Shown here piece after piece: positions 2,697-29,041 of a stretch of 41,069 nucleotides of DNA. The first letter of the stretch is position 1, and every line of letters starts with the position of its first letter. Origin of the DNA: a virus (lineage: Duplodnaviria; Heunggongvirae; Uroviricota; Caudoviricetes); IMG/VR virus record IMGVR_UViG_2541047748_000013. One strand, 5' to 3'. The position numbers and the translations under genes were made by a program. The notes beneath the pieces were generated by a model. The model was not told the DNA's origin, did no database searches, and worked only from the letters and a program-made list of their open reading frames with translations.

Positions 2697-3087
2697 CGTC
2701 TTTTCTCCCCGGAATTAACTCGCGTGGATTATCGGAACGGTGATAGAGCCATATACCAATACGCACAGCGACAATTGCTGACACGAATGCGCCTGCAGAG
2801 AAAACAATCCCTTTTTCAAAAGAGTCCTGCGTGATGGTAGGGATCAGGCTGGCTATGCCGATAAGAATTGATGCTGCTGGTTTGTAAAAGAGAAGGCCGC
2901 AAAGAAAGCTGAGCATCGACAGGAGCACCCGGCGACGGATGGGGTACTCTACTGCAGAGGTAACAAAAATTACCGCCCCAGCCAAAGCCCCTAAAGCAAC
3001 CTCCGGAGGGACACCTGCAATAACCGCAGCAAGAGAACCAAAACTAAGCAACTGATTTAATTGCTCACTTGTTACTTGAGCAGACAT
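2683..3087 (-). CDS. Putative holin
   Basis: 134 aa, several hydrophobic helices, charged C-terminus, first gene of the lysis cassette. Confidence 0.5.
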   Translation of the reverse strand: MSAQVTSEQLNQLLSFGSLAAVIAGVPPEVALGALAGAVIFVTSAVEYPIRRRVLLSMLSFLCGLLFYKPAASILIGIASLIPTITQDSFEKGIVFSAGAFVSAIVAVRIGIWLYHRSDNPRELIPGRKDDGNA

Positions 3088-3368
3088 ACTTTCTCCTGTT
3101 TACTATCTATAAGCCAGTCAATTATTGATGACTAACCCCGCATAGTAAACCATATATGAATCATTATTGTTCCATATCATATATCTCAATAAAAGTACTA
3201 ATGATTTTACAGAACGAGCCAGCAGAGTGGGGGCAGTTGTACAGGAACCATAGACTTAATTTTGTATTTAATAATGCTATGGTGTAATAAACCTGAACAT
3301 GTATTTAAAATACGTACTGATTCATGATAGAATTCAAAGATAACTTTTCACAAACTCCGTTTTTGATA

Positions 3369-3395
3369 CCCGCAAAATATTGCGGGCTTTTTTTT
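3369..3395 (+). terminator. Hairpin plus T8 run in plus orientation abutting the tailspike stop
   Basis: cccgcaaaatattgcggg followed by ctttttttt; no U-run in the minus orientation. Confidence 0.35.
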
Positions 3396-6300
3396 AACGT
3401 TCTTCCAGAGACTGAATCCGCTCTTTTATCTTATCCATTTCTCTGCGCTGCCATGCTGCCTCGATATAGAATAAGAGATCAGGTCTGACCCCCCATCTAG
3501 ATCCTGCTGGCGTTATTTCAACGCGCTCAATGATGTCTTCCATTACCATCACTGGATTATCATCCTCATCAACAATGATGCTCCCGTCATTATCAGTCAG
3601 CGGCATTTCCCTTTGGCCAGTAATGACGTCATCATATACTGCGGGATAATCGTCATAGCAAAGAAAGGCATAGCGGCATGTTGTGCTTTCTTCTTCCATG
3701 AGTCCGTGAGAAATAAGAACATCACGAAGTTGCTGCGCGATTACACCATGATGTATCCTCGCCCCTTCTTCCCCCTTTATAGCGACAGCGTTCAGCCATT
3801 TATAAGCGATATACCTGACGTCACCCCAGGCATCCAGCAATGCTTCGTCAGGAGAGACCGGCTCTGTCTTTAATGTTCCGTCACTGGTAACCACAGGATT
3901 GGAGCCAAGATAAACTGTCGAGAACCTGTTTCCCGGACCACCAAGAGCATTTACATTATCAAGATAAGGTTTAACATCTCCGTTCTCAAAAAGATGTTCG
4001 AGTGCGTTATATACCGCGCGACGTGGAGTACTGCTTCCGGAACCATGCAACGTTATCATTGCACCATCTGCTGAAGACGTTGTTTCACCGCCGCTAACGA
4101 TTAATCTCTGAGCGGTAACATCATCAGACGGTACTTTCTTCGCAATAATGGCGTAATTACCCTCAAGTTTGACTTCCGCGCGAACTTGTCCTGATGTACC
4201 TGCATGGACAGTCAGTGACTGGACGGCAACATCATCTGTGAAATCAACGGGTACAGGAACCGTCCTCACGCCTGACGTCGACATAAAAGTAGGAAGCGTT
4301 CTGTTAGGAGTGGCTCCGTAGACAAAATCCCTTGAAACAAATTCTTCCTGTTTAATTTTCACCCTGAAACAATACAAATCAGCCGGGTGACCATCGTGAA
4401 CATAAGGATATTTTCTGTTGTTATCCCCTATGCTCCATGGGTTTAGAAAGTCTTCCCCACCGAAAATGTAGTACAGCCAGTTGTCTTTGATACAAACTGA
4501 ACCAACACCAACCGCAGAGTTAACTATTCCGCCCTGATAAATCTGATCAGTAACATTAACCCACTCTACATTATCCAGACTCCACTCATTGACGTTAACT
4601 CTGGTCATAAATGTTCTTGGATAATTTCCTGCATAACGGTTATCAGGTTCTCCTCCTTCCCACTCACCAAATGCGCGCTCACTGCCAAAAATAATCAGCT
4701 CATCGCCAACTTTGGCAAAAGGAAGGTTTGAGTGATGAACATTATTTGGGAAGCGAAGAGAATTCCATGATGTACCTAAATCAGAGCTTCTGTGCAATGA
4801 ACTACCGGGTTGAGTACTTAATGTCCCCCTGGTCGTCAGATACAGAATGCCATCATAATATTTTACACATGGCTCAGATGCATTCGCCTCATATTCTACA
4901 GGTATGCGTCTGCGAACAAAGCTACCAGGAGAACCGAAAGCATCAGAGAAATAGAGTATCCCAAGCTCGCGTGGACCAATATCACCATTATGGTAGCCAA
5001 CAGCAAAACTGTTATCGCTAATCGTCGCAAAACTGTGAATCTCAGTAACAGGAGTGCTTCCGTCAACAAAAGAAGGAATAGTTCCAAGACTGGTTTTTCT
5101 CCATGGTGACGAGTGAAATGATGTACCAAAACTCCAGTATCTACCCTCGTTATTCTGATCCACATCCTGGGTATTTTGCGTCGTAACTGTAAAAGTATTT
5201 TTATCAATAACAGTAGTCACCGTCATATTCCCGGTAACACCTGTAACACCAGAGTTTGAGAAGTTGACAAAATCACCAGCAAATAATCCGTGATCAGTAA
5301 TGCGAATATAAGCGACTTGCTGATTTGCTGCTTTCGTTATACCACCATAAACGCGAAGGCTGCGACTCATTGGGCGATCCCACAACTCTGCAACCTGCAG
5401 TTTATTTCCGCTCACGGTCCGCGTCTCAATTACAGCAAAAAGGCGATTTCTGACAACCCCCATACTCATGCAGTGATAGTTAACTGTGGGATAGTTTTCA
5501 TGTAAATCTGTAAGCCATTCCGGCGTTGTCCAGGTCTTCCCGTCATCTCCTGAGCGAACCCATGCAACATGGAGGTTATTTACACCATGGCGGTCTCCAG
5601 CCATAAAAGGCGCATAGATGACATTGTCATATACAAACGTTTTATCCTGCGTCCAGGCGTTGTACCACGGTGTATCTGTAATTTTAAATAACTCTCCCTG
5701 GATAAAATCTTCAGAAGCATAAAAAAGAGGCTGGCCCGGTATTCTCTCAAATAAAAAACGAGCATTTTTAAATCGACTGACATCCGGAAGAGTTGATACT
5801 TTAAAAGTAAGCCCTAATCCGTCAATTTTATAACCTGGAGATGAGGCTTCAAGGCACGCGCTTATTGCAGTGGAATCGTCATTTATACCATCACCAACAG
5901 CTCCAAAATCTTTGGGGCTAATAGCATCACGCATTTTATCCTGGAACGTTCGGTACACAGCCCCAGAACCATACTGAATAAACCAACCAAAACCACCAAC
6001 AACCCCGGCGATTGCAGCATCGACATAATTACGCATTGAGCGATTATTTACAGCGTCCTGCTCAAATGATGGATCTGCAAGGTTAGAAATTTTGTTTTGC
6101 TTTGCATCGTAATATTTTGCAAGCAAAGATGGTTTCATCAATGCACGTCTGAACCACCCAAAACATTGCTGGATCAGCATCGTCAGGTAGTCAAAGGCAT
6201 CTTCATGCACTTCGGGGAAAAATTTTCCCTGATTGCGAAGGTCTGTCTCCTGCACTACATCAAGCACACGATCTATCGTAATTCGCCATCCAGTAGCAAG

Positions 6301-6513
6301 CGGAGACGGAAGAACCACAGAACCGCCACTATAAGTGCCCGCCCCAGTTACCGTATAACCGGTATCCAGAACCAATTCTGTTACGTTCCCGTTCAGGTCA
6401 GACACCTGAACAACCAGGTCTGATTTTCTGAAAATTCGAAAAGTATACGGAAACGATGTCGTAACGCCGTTACCGGTGTATTCGTTGTGGTCAACTTCGG
6501 TTGAGACCGTCAT
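3394..6513 (-). CDS. Tailspike/tail fiber: T7 gp17-like N-terminal adaptor, sialidase-like Asp-box beta-propeller, C-terminal S74-type intramolecular chaperone
   Basis: N-terminus resembles podovirus tail-fiber anchoring domain; Asp-boxes SGDDGKTW and SSDLGTSW; DFGAVGDGINDD motif; C-terminal SDGTLKT...HGVIAQQL region resembles autoproteolytic chaperone domain. Confidence 0.8.
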   Translation of the reverse strand: MTVSTEVDHNEYTGNGVTTSFPYTFRIFRKSDLVVQVSDLNGNVTELVLDTGYTVTGAGTYSGGSVVLPSPLATGWRITIDRVLDVVQETDLRNQGKFFPEVHEDAFDYLTMLIQQCFGWFRRALMKPSLLAKYYDAKQNKISNLADPSFEQDAVNNRSMRNYVDAAIAGVVGGFGWFIQYGSGAVYRTFQDKMRDAISPKDFGAVGDGINDDSTAISACLEASSPGYKIDGLGLTFKVSTLPDVSRFKNARFLFERIPGQPLFYASEDFIQGELFKITDTPWYNAWTQDKTFVYDNVIYAPFMAGDRHGVNNLHVAWVRSGDDGKTWTTPEWLTDLHENYPTVNYHCMSMGVVRNRLFAVIETRTVSGNKLQVAELWDRPMSRSLRVYGGITKAANQQVAYIRITDHGLFAGDFVNFSNSGVTGVTGNMTVTTVIDKNTFTVTTQNTQDVDQNNEGRYWSFGTSFHSSPWRKTSLGTIPSFVDGSTPVTEIHSFATISDNSFAVGYHNGDIGPRELGILYFSDAFGSPGSFVRRRIPVEYEANASEPCVKYYDGILYLTTRGTLSTQPGSSLHRSSDLGTSWNSLRFPNNVHHSNLPFAKVGDELIIFGSERAFGEWEGGEPDNRYAGNYPRTFMTRVNVNEWSLDNVEWVNVTDQIYQGGIVNSAVGVGSVCIKDNWLYYIFGGEDFLNPWSIGDNNRKYPYVHDGHPADLYCFRVKIKQEEFVSRDFVYGATPNRTLPTFMSTSGVRTVPVPVDFTDDVAVQSLTVHAGTSGQVRAEVKLEGNYAIIAKKVPSDDVTAQRLIVSGGETTSSADGAMITLHGSGSSTPRRAVYNALEHLFENGDVKPYLDNVNALGGPGNRFSTVYLGSNPVVTSDGTLKTEPVSPDEALLDAWGDVRYIAYKWLNAVAIKGEEGARIHHGVIAQQLRDVLISHGLMEEESTTCRYAFLCYDDYPAVYDDVITGQREMPLTDNDGSIIVDEDDNPVMVMEDIIERVEITPAGSRWGVRPDLLFYIEAAWQRREMDKIKERIQSLEER

Positions 6514-6997: not shown

Positions 6998-7012
6998 TTA
7001 CCTTTGCGGTAA
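6998..7012. promoter_or_regulatory. TTACC-N5-GGTAA dyad inside a larger hairpin between the ant-like gene and ant
   Basis: TTACCTTTGCGGTAA flanked by inverted repeat AGGAGTGC...GCACTCCT. Confidence 0.45.
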
Positions 7013-7103
7013 ATTTACATCGCACTCCTCTTGTGCCATAGTAATCGGGCACTGGCAAAATCCAGTGCCGGGATTGGCGTCCCGGGTTACTAAGTGGCGC
7101 ATA

Positions 7104-7125
7104 CCACGCCAGACGTGGTTTTTTT
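7104..7125 (+). terminator. Intrinsic terminator upstream of ant
   Basis: CCACG ccaga CGTGG followed by T7 run. Confidence 0.55.
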
Positions 7126-7281
7126 ATGCGTTAAGCACAGCTATATCCGAATTATGGTGGGCTGGGCAGGGGTCCGAAAGGACGCCGGTACCACTTAGGC
7201 CGGTACGCCAACCTTGTCCAGTTCACCACCAGTAATTGGCGTTGCGGTGGTGATTAAAATCACTAAGTGGAGATAACCACC

Positions 7282-7992
7282 ATGGCTAATGCTCAAACTG
7301 CCATCTTCAAATTTGAATCTGTTAACCCTATCCGTTCCATCATTATCGATGGCCAACCATGGTTTGTAGCCCAAGACGTTTGTAGTGCGCTGCGTATCCA
7401 AAACGTCACCCAAGCACTTGAAAAACTGGATGATGATGAAAGGTCTATGTTCAACATAGGGCATGAACATCGTGCAATTTTTGACAGCCGAGTAAAAGAG
7501 ATCAACATTATCTCCGAGTCAGGCCTCTACACACTGATCCTCCGCTGCCGCGACGCAGTGACACCAGGCACTATCCCCTACCGCTTTCGTAAATGGGTTA
7601 CAGGTGAGGTTCTTCCTCAGATCCGCCGCACCGGAAGCTACATTAAAAACTCGCTCCCGCAGGAAGAACGCATAAAGATGGTTGCCGACCAGGTAGCCAA
7701 CGCCACAGCATCAGCAGTAATGCAGGCGATGAAGATAGAGAACAAAACCTACAGCGCCCCGCTGAAGCCCGGCTACCGCAGTTTGATTCACTCGCCGTCG
7801 GGTGTTCTCGGCCTGACGGAGAACTCACTGCTGATGAATTTGCTGAACCAGTTACAGGAAGACGGGCATGACGTATCGGGCGCGGCGGCGGAGCTGACCA
7901 CCATGTTCTGCTACATCGTCGGTGTGAGCAAATGCCTGCGTGATATCCAGACCCACGCGGAGTACATCAACGACAAGGCAGGGTTCTTCTGA
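7282..7992 (+). CDS. ant: Antirepressor, Bro-N/KilA-N N-terminal domain with Ant-type C-terminal domain
   Basis: Bro-N-like N-terminus (FVAQDVCSAL...SGLYTLILRCRD); GGAG RBS 9 nt upstream of ATG at 7282. Confidence 0.8.
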   Translation: MANAQTAIFKFESVNPIRSIIIDGQPWFVAQDVCSALRIQNVTQALEKLDDDERSMFNIGHEHRAIFDSRVKEINIISESGLYTLILRCRDAVTPGTIPYRFRKWVTGEVLPQIRRTGSYIKNSLPQEERIKMVADQVANATASAVMQAMKIENKTYSAPLKPGYRSLIHSPSGVLGLTENSLLMNLLNQLQEDGHDVSGAAAELTTMFCYIVGVSKCLRDIQTHAEYINDKAGFF

Positions 7993-23512: not shown

Positions 23513-23805
23513 TCCTGTTCACTGGCCTCTTTGGCCATCTTCAAATACTGTTCAGGGCAATGCGCCATAACGCGCTGAAACAGTTCCAGCGCCAGATTGC
23601 GTTGCCCCTCATTAAATGCCATTGCCATAGCGTCCATCGGTGAGATAGCGGAAAACACACGGCCTTTCTCCAGCACCGACCAGACAACGCGACGCCCCTG
23701 TTCACTGCTCATGACAAAGCGAATGTCATCAATTTCACGCTGTGCCATGTCACGTTGCTTACGGGCGTTTTCTTCTTTCAGTTGATCATCTTCGTAATCT
23801 GTCAT
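23509..23805 (-). CDS. Hypothetical head-assembly protein
   Basis: 98 aa, 4-nt overlaps with portal and scaffold genes. Confidence 0.5.
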   Translation of the reverse strand: MTDYEDDQLKEENARKQRDMAQREIDDIRFVMSSEQGRRVVWSVLEKGRVFSAISPMDAMAMAFNEGQRNLALELFQRVMAHCPEQYLKMAKEASEQE

Positions 23806-25481
23806 TGTGATTGCCCACCCTGACCACTAACTGCATTCGCCATAGCTGACAAAACACTCGGATCCGAAGTTTTAGCTTCGCTTAGCGTCTTGGCACCCTG
23901 TGCCGCCGCCATCCCCATCGCCATCATTTGTTGCTGCTGTTGTTGCTGTGCCCGTTGCTGGCGAGCCTGCTCAACCTGTTCCTGCGGAACAATGACGGTT
24001 GGAGACACTCCGGACATATCAGCGAATGCATCGATCGCCTGATCAACGTTGAGTTTGTCGAGAGCTTCTGGTTTCGCTTGCGCAAGTTGACCAATGAAGT
24101 TAACCGTGGACGCCAGACTGGACAGGCCGATAGACTTCTGCGCCTGAGCCATGACGGAAATGTATTCGACCTTCAGGGGCATACCTTCCATCACGTCTGG
24201 CGGTGGCGGCAGCATGTTTTTACGCACCATCATCGAGAAAGAGCGGTCAATGAGAGGATTAAGACATTCGTCGTTCAGACGCTCCAGAACCGGCCCCAAC
24301 ATCAGAAGTTTTTCTTCTTTCATTTCGATCACCGCTTCAACAGGCATCGAGCGGGTATTGATGTTCTGCAACATCATGAACAGATCGACAAAGTAGGCGC
24401 TGTTAATGATTTGACGAGTGTCCTGAATGTCTGCCACCAAATCTGCTGTACTGGGGTTAACCAGATAAGCAGGCCTGAAACCATCCTGACCAGTAATCTG
24501 ATCGATATACGTGATGTCGCCAGGAAGAAGGGAGGCACGCTGATTCTTGAGGGAAGTCGGAGCAACCATCGGCGGATTGGTGGCTTTATCAATCAACTGC
24601 GACTTGCGCTTCTGAAGAAGCTGCAATGCCTTAACAGATCCAAGCGCCAGCATACCCGGGCATGATGATCCATAAACATCTTCGCCGTTAACTTCCCAGC
24701 GCGGAGCCATAATTGGAAACTCATCGAATCCGGACTCACGCAACAACTTGTCGTTATCGCCACCAACCTCGTAATAAACCGATTTGAATGGCTTGTTCTT
24801 GCTATCCAGCTTCGATGTATCGCGGTCAATGTTCGGGTAAACCGAATGCATCACTTCAATCCACTTCTCGTAGGTGCCGCTTTCCCACATGCTTTTTACG
24901 GATTCGCTGACGTTATTTAGTCCGAACTCCTGAACAAGCTGACGAACAGTCATAGAGAACTTGCGAAAACAGGTGTCCACACTGCCACGAGGTGAGTTAG
25001 CCAGGTAGTAACTGCCTATCGGGAATGGCATTGTGCGAATGATGTCCTCGTCATCCTCCAGCACTGCCATTGCACCAGTGCTGTATGTGCCGAGGCTTCC
25101 GTATAACTGCGGCAGCGACTGATAGAGATTCGACTTATTGAACATATCGTTCATGCGGTTCTGCACCGCCTCAAGCCACAACTTAACAGGGCCATAATCC
25201 ATCATTTCAGGATCTGGCGTAGCCAGGCGAAACCACGGACGCGCGGGGCTTGTGATGCCTGACATCATGCCGCTGGCGAGAGTGCGCGCCGCCATAGTCC
25301 CGGTCGAATCAATAATGCGTGTATTGCGTCGATCGTTACGGTTAACCTCAGAAGTCAGAAAGCGGGAACCACGCGGGTTGATGTAATCACTCAACTCGCG
25401 CCAGTGCGGCTCGAACGACTGACGCTCGCTTTCAAGTTGTGCGAACTGTTTGTTCAATCGCTCTTTAGTTGTTTCCGCCAT
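23802..25481 (-). CDS. Portal (head-to-tail connector) protein
   Basis: 559 aa, first large gene after terminase; Gln/Ala/Met-rich C-terminus reminiscent of T7 gp8; GGAG RBS. Confidence 0.75.
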   Translation of the reverse strand: MAETTKERLNKQFAQLESERQSFEPHWRELSDYINPRGSRFLTSEVNRNDRRNTRIIDSTGTMAARTLASGMMSGITSPARPWFRLATPDPEMMDYGPVKLWLEAVQNRMNDMFNKSNLYQSLPQLYGSLGTYSTGAMAVLEDDEDIIRTMPFPIGSYYLANSPRGSVDTCFRKFSMTVRQLVQEFGLNNVSESVKSMWESGTYEKWIEVMHSVYPNIDRDTSKLDSKNKPFKSVYYEVGGDNDKLLRESGFDEFPIMAPRWEVNGEDVYGSSCPGMLALGSVKALQLLQKRKSQLIDKATNPPMVAPTSLKNQRASLLPGDITYIDQITGQDGFRPAYLVNPSTADLVADIQDTRQIINSAYFVDLFMMLQNINTRSMPVEAVIEMKEEKLLMLGPVLERLNDECLNPLIDRSFSMMVRKNMLPPPPDVMEGMPLKVEYISVMAQAQKSIGLSSLASTVNFIGQLAQAKPEALDKLNVDQAIDAFADMSGVSPTVIVPQEQVEQARQQRAQQQQQQQMMAMGMAAAQGAKTLSEAKTSDPSVLSAMANAVSGQGGQSQ

Positions 25482-25495
25482 TTCAATGACTCCGG

Positions 25496-25702
25496 TTACT
25501 GACCAAGCAGCGTTTTACCGCTGGTATTAGCGGTTGATGTGTCGCCCTGAGAACCGGTAAGCAGCGTAGAACTACGACCAGCAGCAACGCGACGGCGACG
25601 TGTTTCTTCGTCGCGGGCATCAACAACGGCGGCATCCTGCTCCTGTGGTGCTGCCTGAACTTCTGGTGTTGCAGGCACTGATGGTGAGCTACCCATGCAC
25701 AT
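25496..25702 (-). CDS. Small hydrophilic hypothetical protein
   Basis: 68 aa, GGAG RBS 9 nt upstream, stop 12 nt before portal start; preferred over overlapping 25483-25722 frame. Confidence 0.45.
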   Translation of the reverse strand: MCMGSSPSVPATPEVQAAPQEQDAAVVDARDEETRRRRVAAGRSSTLLTGSQGDTSTANTSGKTLLGQ

Positions 25703-25770
25703 ATCAATGACTCCGTACGCAATTAAATTATTACCAATTTAACCACATATGATTTATTTATCGTAGATAG

Positions 25771-25807
25771 TTGACATTTAACGCACAAATTATTACCTTT
25801 CAGGTAA
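25771..25807 (+). promoter_or_regulatory. Putative plus-strand promoter (TTGACA) with TTACC-N5-GGTAA dyad upstream of tRNA-Arg
   Basis: TTGACA at 25771-25776; dyad TTACCTTTCAGGTAA at 25793-25807 identical to the 6618 site. Confidence 0.4.
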
Positions 25808-26129
25808 CCAAAGAGTTCATTCCGGTTACTAACCTGACTGGCTTGTCGTTAAATTGAACAGGTGGAGTGAGCTTTTATTTTGAGCAGTACGGCGTATGGC
25901 ACATGCGCCGATAGCGGTCTGGATACGTTTAAGGGGCACCCTCCCTTGCTCGGGCAAACGAACCAGGTAGCCGGAATGTGCAAGTCGAGCGGTTTTATTC
26001 CGCGCACGGGGATTCACCATCCCGGCGATTCGGTGTGACGCCTCGGAAGAGACGAGGGTACAACGATGAGAGCATTTATGGAGCCGCGACAAAGTGTGGC
26101 GCCTTAACAGGCTAAGTGCTCTCAGCGTT

Positions 26130-26206
26130 GTGGCATTAGCTCAGTTGGACAGAGCAACCGCCTTCTAAGCGGTTGGTCGCAGGTTCGAATCCTGCATGCC
26201 ACGCCA
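26130..26206 (+). tRNA. tRNA-Arg (anticodon UCU)
   Basis: Manual cloverleaf: acceptor GTGGCAT/ATGCCAC, D-stem GCTC/GAGC, anticodon stem ACCGC/GCGGT with loop CTTCTAA, T-arm GCAGG-TTCGAAT-CCTGC, discriminator G, encoded CCA. Confidence 0.9.
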
Positions 26207-26249
26207 GAATCACGCCTAAGGACCGTGATGCCAGAAGTTCCAGGTGCTT

Positions 26250-26291
26250 GGCGGTGATGGTTTCCCTTGAAGGACTATCACCGCCCTTTTT
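26250..26291 (+). terminator. Intrinsic terminator downstream of tRNA-Arg
   Basis: GGCGGTGAT...ATCACCGCC stem followed by CTTTTT. Confidence 0.55.
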
Positions 26292-26400
26292 ACAGCAGGA
26301 CGCCATTGCGATGACTTCATGCTGTAAACCAGTACAGCCACGGAAGGCATAACTCATTGCTTCCGGTTCGCCGGGCATTTTTTTAAGGTGAGATTAGACT

Positions 26401-26772
26401 ATGAGTGACAAAGACATTGAATCTGAAATTCAGGCTAAAGGTTTAGCCGCGCCGCGCGTTACGCCAGACCATATCGAGAGCATTATTGCTCAGGAGGCAT
26501 ATTTCACAGCAGAAGATGGTGCCTTTGGCGTAGCCATAAAAGCGAAACATACTGGCGGAGAGGTAAACTACCAGCCGCACGAATCACTTTCTCTGCTGAC
26601 GTTCTGCGTCCTGGTGCTGCGCAACGGCTTCACCGTCACCGGAGAGAGCGCCTGTGCAAGCCCGGAAAACTTTGATGCGGAAATTGGTCGGAAGATTGCC
26701 CGGCAGAATGCTGTAAACAAAATCTGGATGCTTGAAGGTTACTTGCTGAAGCAGAAGTTAAGCGAGCAATAA
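26401..26772 (+). CDS. Gp49 / Sf6 gp66-family phage protein
   Basis: 123 aa; recalled resemblance to the Phage_gp49_66 family; plus-strand island inside the minus-strand late operon. Confidence 0.55.
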   Translation: MSDKDIESEIQAKGLAAPRVTPDHIESIIAQEAYFTAEDGAFGVAIKAKHTGGEVNYQPHESLSLLTFCVLVLRNGFTVTGESACASPENFDAEIGRKIARQNAVNKIWMLEGYLLKQKLSEQ

Positions 26773-26776
26773 CACC

Positions 26777-26788
26777 GTGACATGTCAC
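26777..26788. repeat. 12-bp palindrome GTGACATGTCAC, copy 2 of 3
   Basis: 4 nt after the Gp49-like stop, immediately followed by a terminator hairpin. Confidence 0.6.
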
Positions 26789-26791
26789 AAA

Positions 26792-26819
26792 CAGCCAGCC
26801 GATGAGCTGGCTTTGTTTT
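26792..26819 (+). terminator. Intrinsic terminator after the Gp49-like gene
   Basis: AGCCAGC cgatga GCTGGCT followed by TTGTTTT. Confidence 0.55.
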
Positions 26820-26862: not shown

Positions 26863-28338
26863 TTAAGCATAGGGATCATAATCTGTAATGGCCTTGCCTT
26901 GCTGGTTCTGCTGCCCGGGAATTCGCAGACGCTTAGACACAGGGAACGCAAACGTCAGCAGTAGCGCATCGCCTTTACCCGGCGAACGCCCAAGCCGCTC
27001 CTTGATATCTTCCTTCGGTTCGATAACGATTTTACCGTCCACACGAACTTTGTACTCTGCCGCCGACAGGTCGTCTGCAGTTTCCTGGTCATCCAGCATG
27101 CCGCCGAGCCTCAGCCATGTCTTGCATGAGTTGAACATCTCCCCACGCTTGTTGAGCATCTGCGGGTCAGTAGACGCGCCACCGAACGGAACAAGTTGCC
27201 ATGTACGTCCCCAGCCATCACCGATTGACTTCAAACCGGTTCCGTAACCGAAGTCGATGAACACCGCGTCAGCCTGATACTGGTCTTCAAAGTCAGCGAT
27301 ACGCTTCGCCATAATCAGATCGTCGGTAGTCTTGTTGCCAGTCCACAGCACCTTACTGTGTAGCCCCTGCCGCAGGTATATCACCGCGTCATCAACGCCT
27401 GAATATGCCGGGTCAACACCGATTATCACCGGAGCATGTGCAACCTGCGCAGCGGTAACCACCCGCTTCATGGCCTCGTCTGTAAGGCCTGTTGGGATAA
27501 ACTGGAGTTCTGACGCGTCAGGGAAGATCCCCCGCACGCGGACCTTCACGAAGTCGCTGTCTTCGCCGTAGTCGTCAACCCATTTCTGCAGCTGCTGCTT
27601 GTTTGTGCCTTCCACGGTGCGGCTGTCAATCTGCGCGCACTTCCAGCGGTGCTTGTACTTGCGGAAGCATTCGCGGAAGCGCCCGGTGTTACGCGTCGGG
27701 TTCCCAAACGCCACCCAGATAATTTCCGTGTCTTCGTCCGTAAGCGCACCCTCAGCAACTTCCCACACCAGATCCGCAATGTTCGACGCTTCATCGAATA
27801 CCACGATGATGCGTTTGCGCTCGTTGTGTAGTCCGGCGAATGCCTCGGTGTTGTGCTCAGACCAGGGTATTGCGTCAGCCCGCCACCGCTTGTCGTGCCC
27901 TAGGTCATTGCTGTACATCGCGGTAGCGGTACAGGTAAACCAGTCTTTCGTGATAGCAAGGTTCGACCACTTGATAATTTCCGGCCAGGTCTTCGTTCGT
28001 AGCTGGTTGTCGGTGTTGGCGGTCACCACGACCTTACAATCCTCGCAAGTGGACATGCCCCAGTTGATCAGCATTGAGATGAATGCGGATTTACCAATAC
28101 CGTGACCAGAAGCGCGTGCCAGCATAAGCGGCTGATAGCGCGTCTCTGGATTCTGCAGGTGATCACGTATCTCTCGGAACGCATCAGCCTGCCACTGACG
28201 TGGGCCGGTGGCATGTGCCAGTTCAGTCCCCTCTTCCCCCCACGGGAACGCATAGAGGGCATAGCCAAGCGGATCGTGAGTGAACCCTGCAATATCCTCG
28301 ATTAACTGCTCTTCAGGAGATAACGCTGTATCTGTCAC
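26863..28338 (-). CDS. Terminase large subunit
   Basis: 491 aa; N-terminal ATPase-like region (GHGIGKSAF Walker A-like) and C-terminal nuclease-like region; overlaps small subunit stop. Confidence 0.85.
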   Translation of the reverse strand: MTDTALSPEEQLIEDIAGFTHDPLGYALYAFPWGEEGTELAHATGPRQWQADAFREIRDHLQNPETRYQPLMLARASGHGIGKSAFISMLINWGMSTCEDCKVVVTANTDNQLRTKTWPEIIKWSNLAITKDWFTCTATAMYSNDLGHDKRWRADAIPWSEHNTEAFAGLHNERKRIIVVFDEASNIADLVWEVAEGALTDEDTEIIWVAFGNPTRNTGRFRECFRKYKHRWKCAQIDSRTVEGTNKQQLQKWVDDYGEDSDFVKVRVRGIFPDASELQFIPTGLTDEAMKRVVTAAQVAHAPVIIGVDPAYSGVDDAVIYLRQGLHSKVLWTGNKTTDDLIMAKRIADFEDQYQADAVFIDFGYGTGLKSIGDGWGRTWQLVPFGGASTDPQMLNKRGEMFNSCKTWLRLGGMLDDQETADDLSAAEYKVRVDGKIVIEPKEDIKERLGRSPGKGDALLLTFAFPVSKRLRIPGQQNQQGKAITDYDPYA

Positions 28339-28931
28339 TGATTGCCATCCTGACGTTCTTTCAGTCTCTTCCTGGCTGCCGCTATGCGATCAGCAATTGT
28401 CACATTCACATTAACATCCAGGCGTTCTTTGAATGCGTTGACGTCGACGTGCTTACCAATCAGTTCGAGGTTCTTCACCTTGTCAGGCCATTTAATTTTT
28501 TTGAGGATTGTCTCTATCGAATCCTCGTTCATGTTCATGATGGTCGATGACAGATCAAAGCCACTAAGCGTAGTGCGCCAGATTTTCGGCCACTCGCGGA
28601 TTGGCTTAAGGCTCCCATCGTCGTTGAGGATGTCGATCACGTCCATCTGGTCGATCTCCACCAGGCGCATGAGAACGTAATCAGCACTGACGCGCATTCG
28701 TTTGTTGCGCTCCTCCATCAACTCGGCAATCCGTTTTTGAATGCGTTCATCGCGCATCATGACACTGGCTTTAACTGCCGCTGTATTTGGGGAGAATCCT
28801 GCGTTAATCGCTGCCTGAGTCTGGTTTTCAGGCGTTTTGATGTATGACTGGCAATAAGCCTCCTGCATTGCTGTTAGTGGCTTAAATTGCGTTGATTTGC
28901 GTTTATAGGCTTTAGGTTCAGCAGGCATCAT
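28335..28931 (-). CDS. Terminase small subunit
   Basis: About 198 aa from internal Met pair (MMPAEP); immediately upstream of large subunit; listed ORF start at 29009 judged too far upstream. Confidence 0.7.
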   Translation of the reverse strand: MMPAEPKAYKRKSTQFKPLTAMQEAYCQSYIKTPENQTQAAINAGFSPNTAAVKASVMMRDERIQKRIAELMEERNKRMRVSADYVLMRLVEIDQMDVIDILNDDGSLKPIREWPKIWRTTLSGFDLSSTIMNMNEDSIETILKKIKWPDKVKNLELIGKHVDVNAFKERLDVNVNVTIADRIAAARKRLKERQDGNQ

Positions 28932-28948
28932 AACCACCGTGGTAATAG

Positions 28949-28963
28949 TTACCGTTGTGGTAA
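28949..28963. promoter_or_regulatory. TTACC-N5-GGTAA dyad cluster just upstream of the terminase small subunit start
   Basis: TTACCGTTGTGGTAA flanked by GGTAATAGTTACC and GGTAATAGTACC. Confidence 0.45.
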
Positions 28964-29000: not shown

Positions 29001-29041
29001 AGTATTCAAACCCCATCAAATTCATCATGCATAATCTACTC

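Follow-up and report, generated by a model that had tools for sequence, protein, structure and literature searches.

A conserved pseudoknotted RNA precedes a tRNA-Arg and an Acb4-family gene in a putative early counter-defence unit of phiV10/epsilon15-like phages

Positions 25771-26819 of a viral DNA record of 41,069 nucleotides (nt) (IMG/VR record IMGVR_UViG_2541047748_000013, Caudoviricetes; the record at its full length is termed the window throughout) carry a tRNA-Arg(UCU) gene and an open reading frame (ORF) of 123 amino acids. Both are encoded on the plus strand and lie as an island between gp3 and the portal gene on one side and terminase on the other, which are all minus-strand genes. 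The source is a phiV10/epsilon15-like (Uetakevirus) prophage of Escherichia coli; among the complete E. coli chromosomes listed as matches, seven, e.g., that of strain SF-468, share the 1.16-kb region at 100% identity, and phage phiV10 does so at 98.5%. An earlier reading of the same DNA, here called the original prediction, had already placed the tRNA and a Gp49-family gene on this strand between portal and terminase, which agrees with what we find. It had also described the stretch upstream of the tRNA (25808-26129) as non-coding and unexplained: a conserved ORF is indeed missing there, but 25888-26129 encodes a widespread structured RNA. The elements of the island follow each other as operator-overlapped promoter, leader RNA of ~245 nt, tRNA-Arg(UCU), terminators T1 and T2, Acb4-family gene and terminator T3 (Table 1), and this order is best explained by a single early transcription unit for counter-defence, under repressor control and ancestral in the epsilon15/phiV10-like phages.

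Judging from its pattern of substitutions, the segment 25888-26129 is a conserved, pseudoknotted RNA of ~245 nt encoded on the plus strand. The structure of its core was derived by eye and then tested on an alignment of 23 diverse copies, in which six core helices covary, one of them being the pseudoknot. In this alignment, 97.4% of the cells form standard pairs and compensatory changes occur in 11 pairs, whereas pairing fell to 27-43% in a control in which the 3' partners were slid by 1-3 columns; the covariation score was reached by no shuffle. The 3' domain P7 behaves likewise, with compensatory changes in 11 of its 15 predicted pairs (21 diverse sequences) and a folding energy of -37.4 kcal/mol (z = -6.0). 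Since the outermost P7 pair uses nucleotide +1 of the tRNA, cleavage by RNase P would set the 3' end of the RNA. The strand is fixed by G-U pairs, which would become C-A mismatches on the opposite strand. Some unpaired segments, up to 19 nt long, do not vary at all among copies whose overall identity is about 70%. A search for further long-range pairs by mutual information, made over 74 distinct sequences, gave back only the helices already proposed, and a possible tertiary pairing, GCACAU/AUGUGC, is invariant, so that covariation says nothing about it either way.

Table 1. Coordinates of the unit and of its flanking genes in the window
Feature	Positions	Strand	Description
Portal	23802-25481	-	
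gp3	25496-25702	-	
Direct repeat AAATTATTACC, first copy	25725-25735		Operator half-site context, gp3/island divergent region
-35 box TTGACA	25771-25776	+	Island promoter, read from sequence
Operator dyad TTACCTTTCAGGTAA	25793-25807		Overlaps -10 region
Best -10 candidate TACCTT	25794-25799	+	17-nt spacer; weak
5' leader of unit	25808-25887	+	25842-25887 conserved among uetakeviruses
RNA core	25888-26061	+	Covariance model 159.4 bits, E = 4.7e-44
P1	25890-25894/25906-25910	+	
P2	25919-25922/25963-25966	+	Variable domain inside
Invariant segment GGTAGCCGGAATGTGCAAG	25966-25984	+	
P4	25989-25992/26000-26003	+	
P5	26009-26012/26020-26023	+	
Pseudoknot	26015-26018/26032-26035	+	P5 loop CACC with GGUG; covaries to AACC/GGUU
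P6	26041-26045/26053-26057	+	Loop GAAGAGA
3' domain P7	26061-26077/26114-26130	+	Long helix around two small hairpins
tRNA-Arg(UCU)	26130-26206	+	ARAGORN tRNA-Arg(tct); Rfam RF00005 73.3 bits vs gathering 29; CCA at 26204-26206
T1	26250-26291 (scan 26250-26285)	+	14-bp stem + U5; -22.8 kcal/mol, z = -5.8
T2	26362-26385 (scan 26362-26375)	+	-7.5 kcal/mol; weak in window copy
acb4-family gene (Gp49)	26401-26772	+	123 aa; predicted cyclic-dinucleotide sponge
T3	26793-26819 (scan 26793-26812)	+	7 bp, -12.3 kcal/mol; closes unit
Large terminase	26863-28338	-	

A protein-coding reading of the RNA region was rejected on the grounds of invariant 19-nt blocks without a third-position pattern, non-triplet insertions and deletions in the variable hairpins, and compensatory substitutions in the helices. 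The callable minus-strand ORFs at 25829-26092 and 26136-26378 of the window, which lie opposite RNA, tRNA and terminators, are probably spurious as well. The same probably applies to the annotated antisense ORFs mEp460_037 (locus L001, 2943-3311) and PhiV10p04 (locus L002, 3437-3688). All these ORFs lack conservation between copies and sit in DNA that evolves as paired RNA helices.

Two further observations concern the fold. Within the 5' leader, 25818-25829 (CATTCCGGTTAC) is complementary, with one G-U pair, to 25967-25978 (GTAGCCGGAATG), the single-stranded block that is best conserved within the RNA core, and the minimum-free-energy fold pairs these two segments. Among four aligned uetakevirus leaders, the pairing is found in the phiV10 type only; it could represent an alternative, inactivating conformation. 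In some Stx2a phages (loci L010/L124, Stx2a_1447 type, ~2690-2760), P7 contains an insert of ~130 nt with a tRNA T-arm-like GGTTCAATTCCAG, and no tRNA was called in this insert by ARAGORN.

The RNA is found far beyond uetakeviruses. Positions 25889-26129 are ~80% identical to unannotated DNA of unrelated phages, including P1, P7, D6, SJ46 and RCS47 of the P1 group, the lambdoid phages mEp460, cdtI, 2H10 and Ayreon, Stx2c and Stx2a phages, phages of Klebsiella and Enterobacter, and one phage whose deposited name points to Stenotrophomonas. At least 120 IMG/VR contigs contain an exact two-block pattern of the RNA, as do 18 species genomes, all of the latter from Enterobacterales. With the mEp460 copy as megablast query, the element was detected in 1,638 of 5,426 complete E. 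coli genomes (~30%); of 40 sampled matches, 32 had no annotated feature, 7 overlapped a tRNA-Arg annotation only and one a hypothetical protein. A covariance model of the RNA (R1) found exactly one copy per locus, and no second copy in the window or on the PR side. The phage deposited as "Stenotrophomonas phage vB_SmeS_BUCT708" (OM816834.1, locus L008; BUCT708 in the following) holds an RNA near-identical to copies on IMG/VR viral contigs, and its recorded host is perhaps doubtful, as the genome scan placed the element in Enterobacterales only.

A covariance scan of the upstream stretch against Rfam, the check that had been proposed for it, was run and returned no family match: with Rfam 15 (4227 models), the window, P1 and BUCT708 copies gave only noise at E <= 10 and nothing at the gathering threshold. 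A prior description of the RNA was not found in full-text literature searches, which left the work on the HK639 antiterminator RNA uncovered, so that an earlier description is possible. While the RNA matches no Rfam family, the tRNA and the Acb4-family gene are of known kinds, and the set of operators is ordinary for a temperate phage.

The surroundings of the RNA were surveyed in 129 loci. In 61 of these, it lies ~140 nt downstream of a same-strand S24-type cI repressor gene; a tRNA-Arg(UCU) follows it immediately in 31 loci, those of uetakeviruses, and a tRNA(CAU) immediately precedes it in 19 loci of P1-like elements. Adjacency to a tRNA is nevertheless not a general rule, as 79 of the 129 copies have no tRNA within 600 nt. 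The RNA seems to be co-oriented with the downstream coding genes: opposite-strand ORFs looked spurious by inspection, which was not systematic, and two cargo-less loci of the L117 type stand aside from this statement. A strong intrinsic terminator follows the RNA in every context but P1.

Of special interest is mEp460, in which the stop codon of cI is followed by a terminator, two CI operators (TTGC-N7-GCAA, a motif also present at OR) and the RNA (2985-3245), and then by a terminator of -21.2 kcal/mol, a long hairpin and the first ORF of the 12-gene leftward PL operon. No CI operator was found after the post-RNA terminator of mEp460, and no N gene is annotated in this phage. A second lambdoid lineage, the BUCT708 type, has a different repressor, promoter and terminator and shows the same succession of a promoter (TTGACG-17-TAAATT), the RNA, a terminator (7 GC pairs + U7) and genes. 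The long BUCT708 leader between post-RNA terminator and first ORF (L008, 2425-3060) contains at least six GGAAAGACC-like motifs, which may be sites of an RNA-binding protein. In P1, the RNA (71023-71191) starts 14 nt past trnI, and ban follows it at a distance of 100 nt; the surrounding ban operon is under the control of C1 and also holds a dicF-like region and two more tRNAs. In a P1-like variant, the RNA is followed by a Tad2-like gene, two ORFs and ban.

At the upstream end of the island, both elements of the predicted control region, a TTGACA box and an overlapping operator dyad, are present, and promoter function would follow from them by inference. A generic sigma-70 consensus scan called no promoter at the island, since the TACCTT -10 candidate is weak. 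The ATTGACA box and the dyad are kept in phiV10-type phages, epsilon15 and Klebsiella relatives, and the dyad also in Tyrion; AAATTATTACC occurs in exact copies at 25725 and 25787, an arrangement retained in a Klebsiella relative. The dyad itself is, by its recurrence in the sequence, a genuine phage repressor operator. With at most one mismatch allowed, the 41-kb window contains 13 copies of TTACC-N5-GGTAA where 0.58 would be expected, a number reached by none of 100 shuffles, and a repressor site is annotated at the homologous position in the record of epsilon15. The island therefore appears as a repressor-controlled unit, one of many in this phage. This layout resembles the multi-operator control exerted by C1 of P1.

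Further dyad copies bear on the claim that late transcription must read through the island. Two copies (28931 and 28949) are located immediately upstream of the probable small-terminase start, the copy at 25793 sits in the gp3 divergent region, a divergent regulatory region at 33.6-34.8 kb has several more, and one (6998-7012) lies immediately upstream of an isrK/C4 RNA pair. As operators precede the terminase start and also stand in the region that diverges from gp3, transcription of the late genes does not have to cross the island; the arrangement suggests that the terminase and gp3 sides are separate operator-controlled units. Nothing at the island points to antisense interference, which had also been proposed. 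With regard to the terminase start, the two dyads (28931-28963) fall inside an ORF called from a TTG at 29009 and just upstream of an alternative ATG at 28937. This ATG is probably the true start, and control of the terminase unit by the repressor seems to be direct.

Terminators were judged by a scan tool, alignments and folding. T1 and T3 each combine a GC-rich hairpin with a following U tract, the hallmark of intrinsic terminators. While the existence of plus-strand terminators had been foreseen correctly, there are three of them instead of two. T1 is homologous to the PL-leader terminator of mEp460 and Stx2a_1447, so that the RNA and T1 travel together in the lambdoid PL leader and in the island. 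T2 comprises 6-7 GC pairs and U7 in relatives. T1 and T2 are kept across four diverged genera-level uetakevirus lineages. As T2 stands directly before the acb4 ribosome-binding site, acb4 would be transcribed only by readthrough of T1 and T2. The phiV10 record annotates a terminator at the position of T3, which is possibly bidirectional and could act toward terminase as well.

The Gp49-like gene of the original prediction is present and can be named more precisely as a member of the Acb4 family of anti-CBASS sponges, a relationship that had been missed. Its product matches PF13876 (Phage_gp49_66) with 121.3 bits (cut-off 27; E = 2.4e-35) over profile positions 1-82 of 82, and a profile of 30 homologs matches SPO1 anti-CBASS 4 (Acb4; PDB 9e4w) with E = 4.4e-6. 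In a Foldseek search of the PDB with the AlphaFold2 model (predicted local distance difference test score, pLDDT, 83.3), the best 13 matches were all 9e4w chains, with a probability of 1.00 and a target-normalised template modelling score (TM-score) of 0.62-0.73, and the next match had E = 0.22. Acb4 of the Bacillus phage SPO1 founds family PF13876 with 1,331 homologs, and 3'3'-cGAMP was bound by all eight tested homologs (bioRxiv 10.1101/2024.12.30.630793). The window protein shares with SPO1 Acb4 the family membership, the profile match and the predicted fold, but it is only 20-22% identical and has an additional N-terminal helix region of ~25 residues. By this profile and model evidence, it is an Acb4-family protein with predicted sponge activity, and the annotation "Gp49 family protein" should become Acb4-family sponge.

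Whereas the RNA is constant, the cargo downstream of it varies and includes Acb4, Tad2-like, RdgC-like and other proteins. Tad2-like genes (PF11195, Thoeris anti-defence 2) occupy the slot in a Klebsiella uetakevirus (locus L009, 3011-3532) and, independently, in a P1-like element, between RNA and ban (locus L033, 742-1317); in the Klebsiella uetakevirus ST512-KPC3phi13.3, where the gene comes after tRNA and terminators, its product matches PF11195 with E = 4e-26. A direct homology of Gp49 and Tad2 was discarded because BLASTP gave no significant match; these are different sponge families in the same slot. The exchange of Acb4 for Tad2-like genes marks the slot as a position for counter-defence cargo. 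The tie of the RNA to this sponge slot raises the possibility that the RNA itself takes part in counter-defence, and searches for new counter-defence genes could use the RNA with its terminator as a landmark.

The recurring order of a repressor-controlled early promoter, the conserved RNA, a strong intrinsic terminator and genes, found in lambdoid phages without an annotated antiterminator protein upstream, favours a cis-acting antiterminator, and we infer antitermination by the leader RNA from this comparison of contexts. On balance, it appears probable that the RNA itself is the effector, be it as a protein-free reprogrammer of RNA polymerase that drives counter-defence cargo or as a trans-acting RNA that neutralises or senses host defence. 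The mechanism we favour, albeit tentatively and as one that may well prove wrong, is a cis-acting processive antiterminator that would work like put of phage HK022 while being unrelated to it in sequence. Here, the leader RNA would fold during transcription and act in cis on the RNA polymerase that made it; this polymerase would then read through T1 and T2 into the downstream cargo, and a cut by RNase P at tRNA +1 would free the RNA from the transcript.

To our knowledge, RNA-only processive antitermination in phages has essentially one example, HK022 put. This RNA lies just downstream of PL, suppresses intrinsic as well as Rho-dependent terminators, and its antitermination was reported to be independent of a tether to the elongation complex (PMC9378689). 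The RNA of the window type is also found in a leader just downstream of a repressor-controlled early promoter, in a lambdoid phage without annotated N; both are followed by terminators that need readthrough, and neither has a dedicated protein partner encoded upstream. If the favoured mechanism holds, a second, unrelated and far more widespread RNA would occupy the genomic position of put, which would make the strategy a general one and the RNA a new variant of RNA-mediated antitermination, and the expression of the early-left operon in many lambdoid prophages without an N gene would be explained. With copies in P1, phiV10 and ~1,600 of 5,426 complete E. coli genomes, unannotated by RefSeq, the proposal is readily testable.

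Several observations speak against antitermination of the put kind. The RNA has no sequence similarity to HK022 putL, and homology to putL/putR was dismissed since the HK022 PL-nun region shares only chance words of 9 to 14 nt in blastn-short, the 14-mer lying inside the nun coding sequence. With ~245 nt, at least seven helices and a pseudoknot, the RNA also differs from put with its ~70 nt and two stem-loops, and it is present as a single copy, none serving the PR operon, unlike putR in HK022. In further contrast to put, it also occurs in podovirus (uetakevirus) and P1 contexts, and next to tRNAs. Canonical P1 lacks a convincing terminator between RNA and ban, and its P7 domain is missing. 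Two Klebsiella-type uetakevirus loci (L117 type) keep RNA and tRNA without a cargo gene before terminase. In epsilon15, the RNA core is lost, yet T2 and the sponge gene are retained. Finally, independent small-RNA genes, too, normally consist of a promoter, an RNA and a terminator in this order.

The main rival takes up this last point: the RNA could be the product of a stand-alone early gene, co-transcribed with the tRNA and ended by T1 as its own terminator. Termination, a cut by RNase P at tRNA +1 or perhaps one by RNase III in P7 would set it free to act in trans as a decoy, inhibitor or takeover RNA that binds a host or defence factor, and the sponge genes would be co-located cargo, not its target. 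Such an RNA may constitute a new kind of phage effector RNA. The recurrence of the promoter-RNA-strong terminator layout speaks for it, and the cargo-less Klebsiella-type arrangement, with RNA and tRNA retained and no downstream gene, looks like a stand-alone RNA operon. Further support comes from the P1 copy, which lies among other RNA products (dicF-like region, three tRNAs) with no terminator after it, from the exact end of P7 at the RNase P site, from the invariant unpaired segments of up to 19 nt, which suggest a conserved binding partner, and from the counter-defence genes Acb4 and Tad2-like as neighbours. We nevertheless consider a trans-acting RNA rather unlikely. In lambdoids without annotated N, the whole PL operon stands behind T1 with CI operators upstream only, and termination at T1 would silence it; in addition, the RNA is apparently co-oriented with downstream genes and never an isolated, freely oriented gene, and no candidate target was identified.

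The interpretation given in the original prediction, of a tRNA/Gp49 moron inserted antisense in the late operon, with transcriptional interference or supply of AGA-decoding tRNA as its role and mere spacer upstream, is improbable. In its favour is the orientation of the unit, which converges with terminase and diverges from gp3/portal. A recent insertion does not fit: in phiV10, Tyrion, SPN1S and Klebsiella uetakeviruses, gp3 and terminase enclose the same plus-strand unit, so the island is conserved genus-wide, and epsilon15 holds a deletion remnant of it at this position. The epsilon15 deletion (locus L005, 2549-2639) extends from the variable domain of the RNA through tRNA-Arg to the left arm of T1, leaving an RNA remnant of 39.6 bits with the covariance model together with P1, T2 and the Acb4-family gene (gp50). 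The operator copies at the terminase start and beside gp3 suggest separate units and not a single late operon, and no RNA element of the locus is better conserved than the supposed spacer.

The tRNA, the only one detected by ARAGORN in the whole window, was accepted by both ARAGORN and Rfam as a complete tRNA-Arg(UCU) with encoded CCA, as had been predicted, and RefSeq annotates a tRNA-Arg in an identical prophage. Phage argU-like tRNAs are known to compensate codon usage, the argN/argO tRNAs of Stx phages being examples, and typical AGA/AGG usage in E. coli is about one third of that in the window, where the 46 ORFs contain 7.4 AGA and 4.1 AGG per 1000 codons. The proposed rare-codon supply is supported only in so far as AGA and AGG are used ~3x as often as in the host, but not for the core late genes, as the capsid, scaffold, portal and large-terminase genes contain zero AGA. 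These codons cluster in a tailspike-like ORF of 1039 codons (3394-6513, minus strand), which with 16 AGA and 8 AGG has the window maximum, and in accessory genes; a supply of tRNA-Arg for acquired genes is accordingly plausible. The window tRNA is like other argU-like phage tRNAs in its anticodon, canonical cloverleaf, encoded CCA and AGA-rare host. It differs from them in being fused to the 3' end of a structured RNA, with P7 reaching tRNA +1, in its place in an operator-controlled unit with a counter-defence gene, and in that the most highly expressed late genes of the phage lack AGA.

A pure processing or stability element, i.e., a folded 5' domain that would direct RNase P, RNase III or RNase E to mature the adjacent tRNA or to protect the downstream mRNA without any effect on RNA polymerase, appears still less probable. 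The RNA adjoins tRNA genes in 50 of the 129 loci (31 with tRNA-Arg 3', 19 with tRNA(CAU) 5'), P7 with its 17-20 bp is a plausible RNase III substrate ending at tRNA +1, and the epsilon15 record annotates an RNase III site nearby, its "RNaseIII mRNA processing" label expressing the same idea. This feature, however, covers another hairpin, one of the 5' leader, and the record places it on the opposite strand; the 79 copies without a nearby tRNA do not fit, and a simple site would not need a near-invariant core of ~175 nt with a pseudoknot. Least probable of all is a ligand-sensing leader, in which a riboswitch-like aptamer would gate T1/T2 upon sensing some metabolite or a nucleotide signal derived from defence, and the sponge gene or the early operon would be switched on at need only. 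A complex fold with a pseudoknot and invariant nucleotides at its junctions, the 5' leader position with terminators after it and nucleotide-signal sponges among the cargo would suit it, but the terminator never adjoins or overlaps the core (the tRNA and 43 nt lie between them here, 55-140 nt elsewhere), no alternative core-T1 pairing was seen, the cargo is heterogeneous, P1 is without the terminator and no known riboswitch family in Rfam matches.

Two other classes of phage-associated RNA invite comparison. GOLLD and ROOL are large phage-associated structured RNAs that are often located beside tRNA genes, and the window RNA is alike in being prophage-borne, often tRNA-adjacent and of complex conserved fold. 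It has no Rfam match to either of them, is much smaller (~245 nt), was confined to Enterobacterales in the genome scan, and has a leader position with apparent co-orientation to downstream genes. The immunity RNAs C4 of P1 and CI of P4 are matured by RNase P and cut from longer operator-controlled transcripts. The likeness lies in this origin of a phage regulatory RNA from a longer operator-controlled transcript, whereas the window RNA shows no similarity to the C4 model, has no identified antisense target and differs in size and fold.

A true C4/isrK pair is found elsewhere in the window (7049-7233, plus strand), where an Rfam isrK RNA (67.7 bits) is directly followed by a C4 antisense RNA (66 bits). 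Preceded by the dyad at 6998-7012 and followed by an ORF of 241 codons (7267-7992), this pair resembles a secondary immunity module of the P1 immI (c4-ant) kind, here within a uetakevirus prophage.

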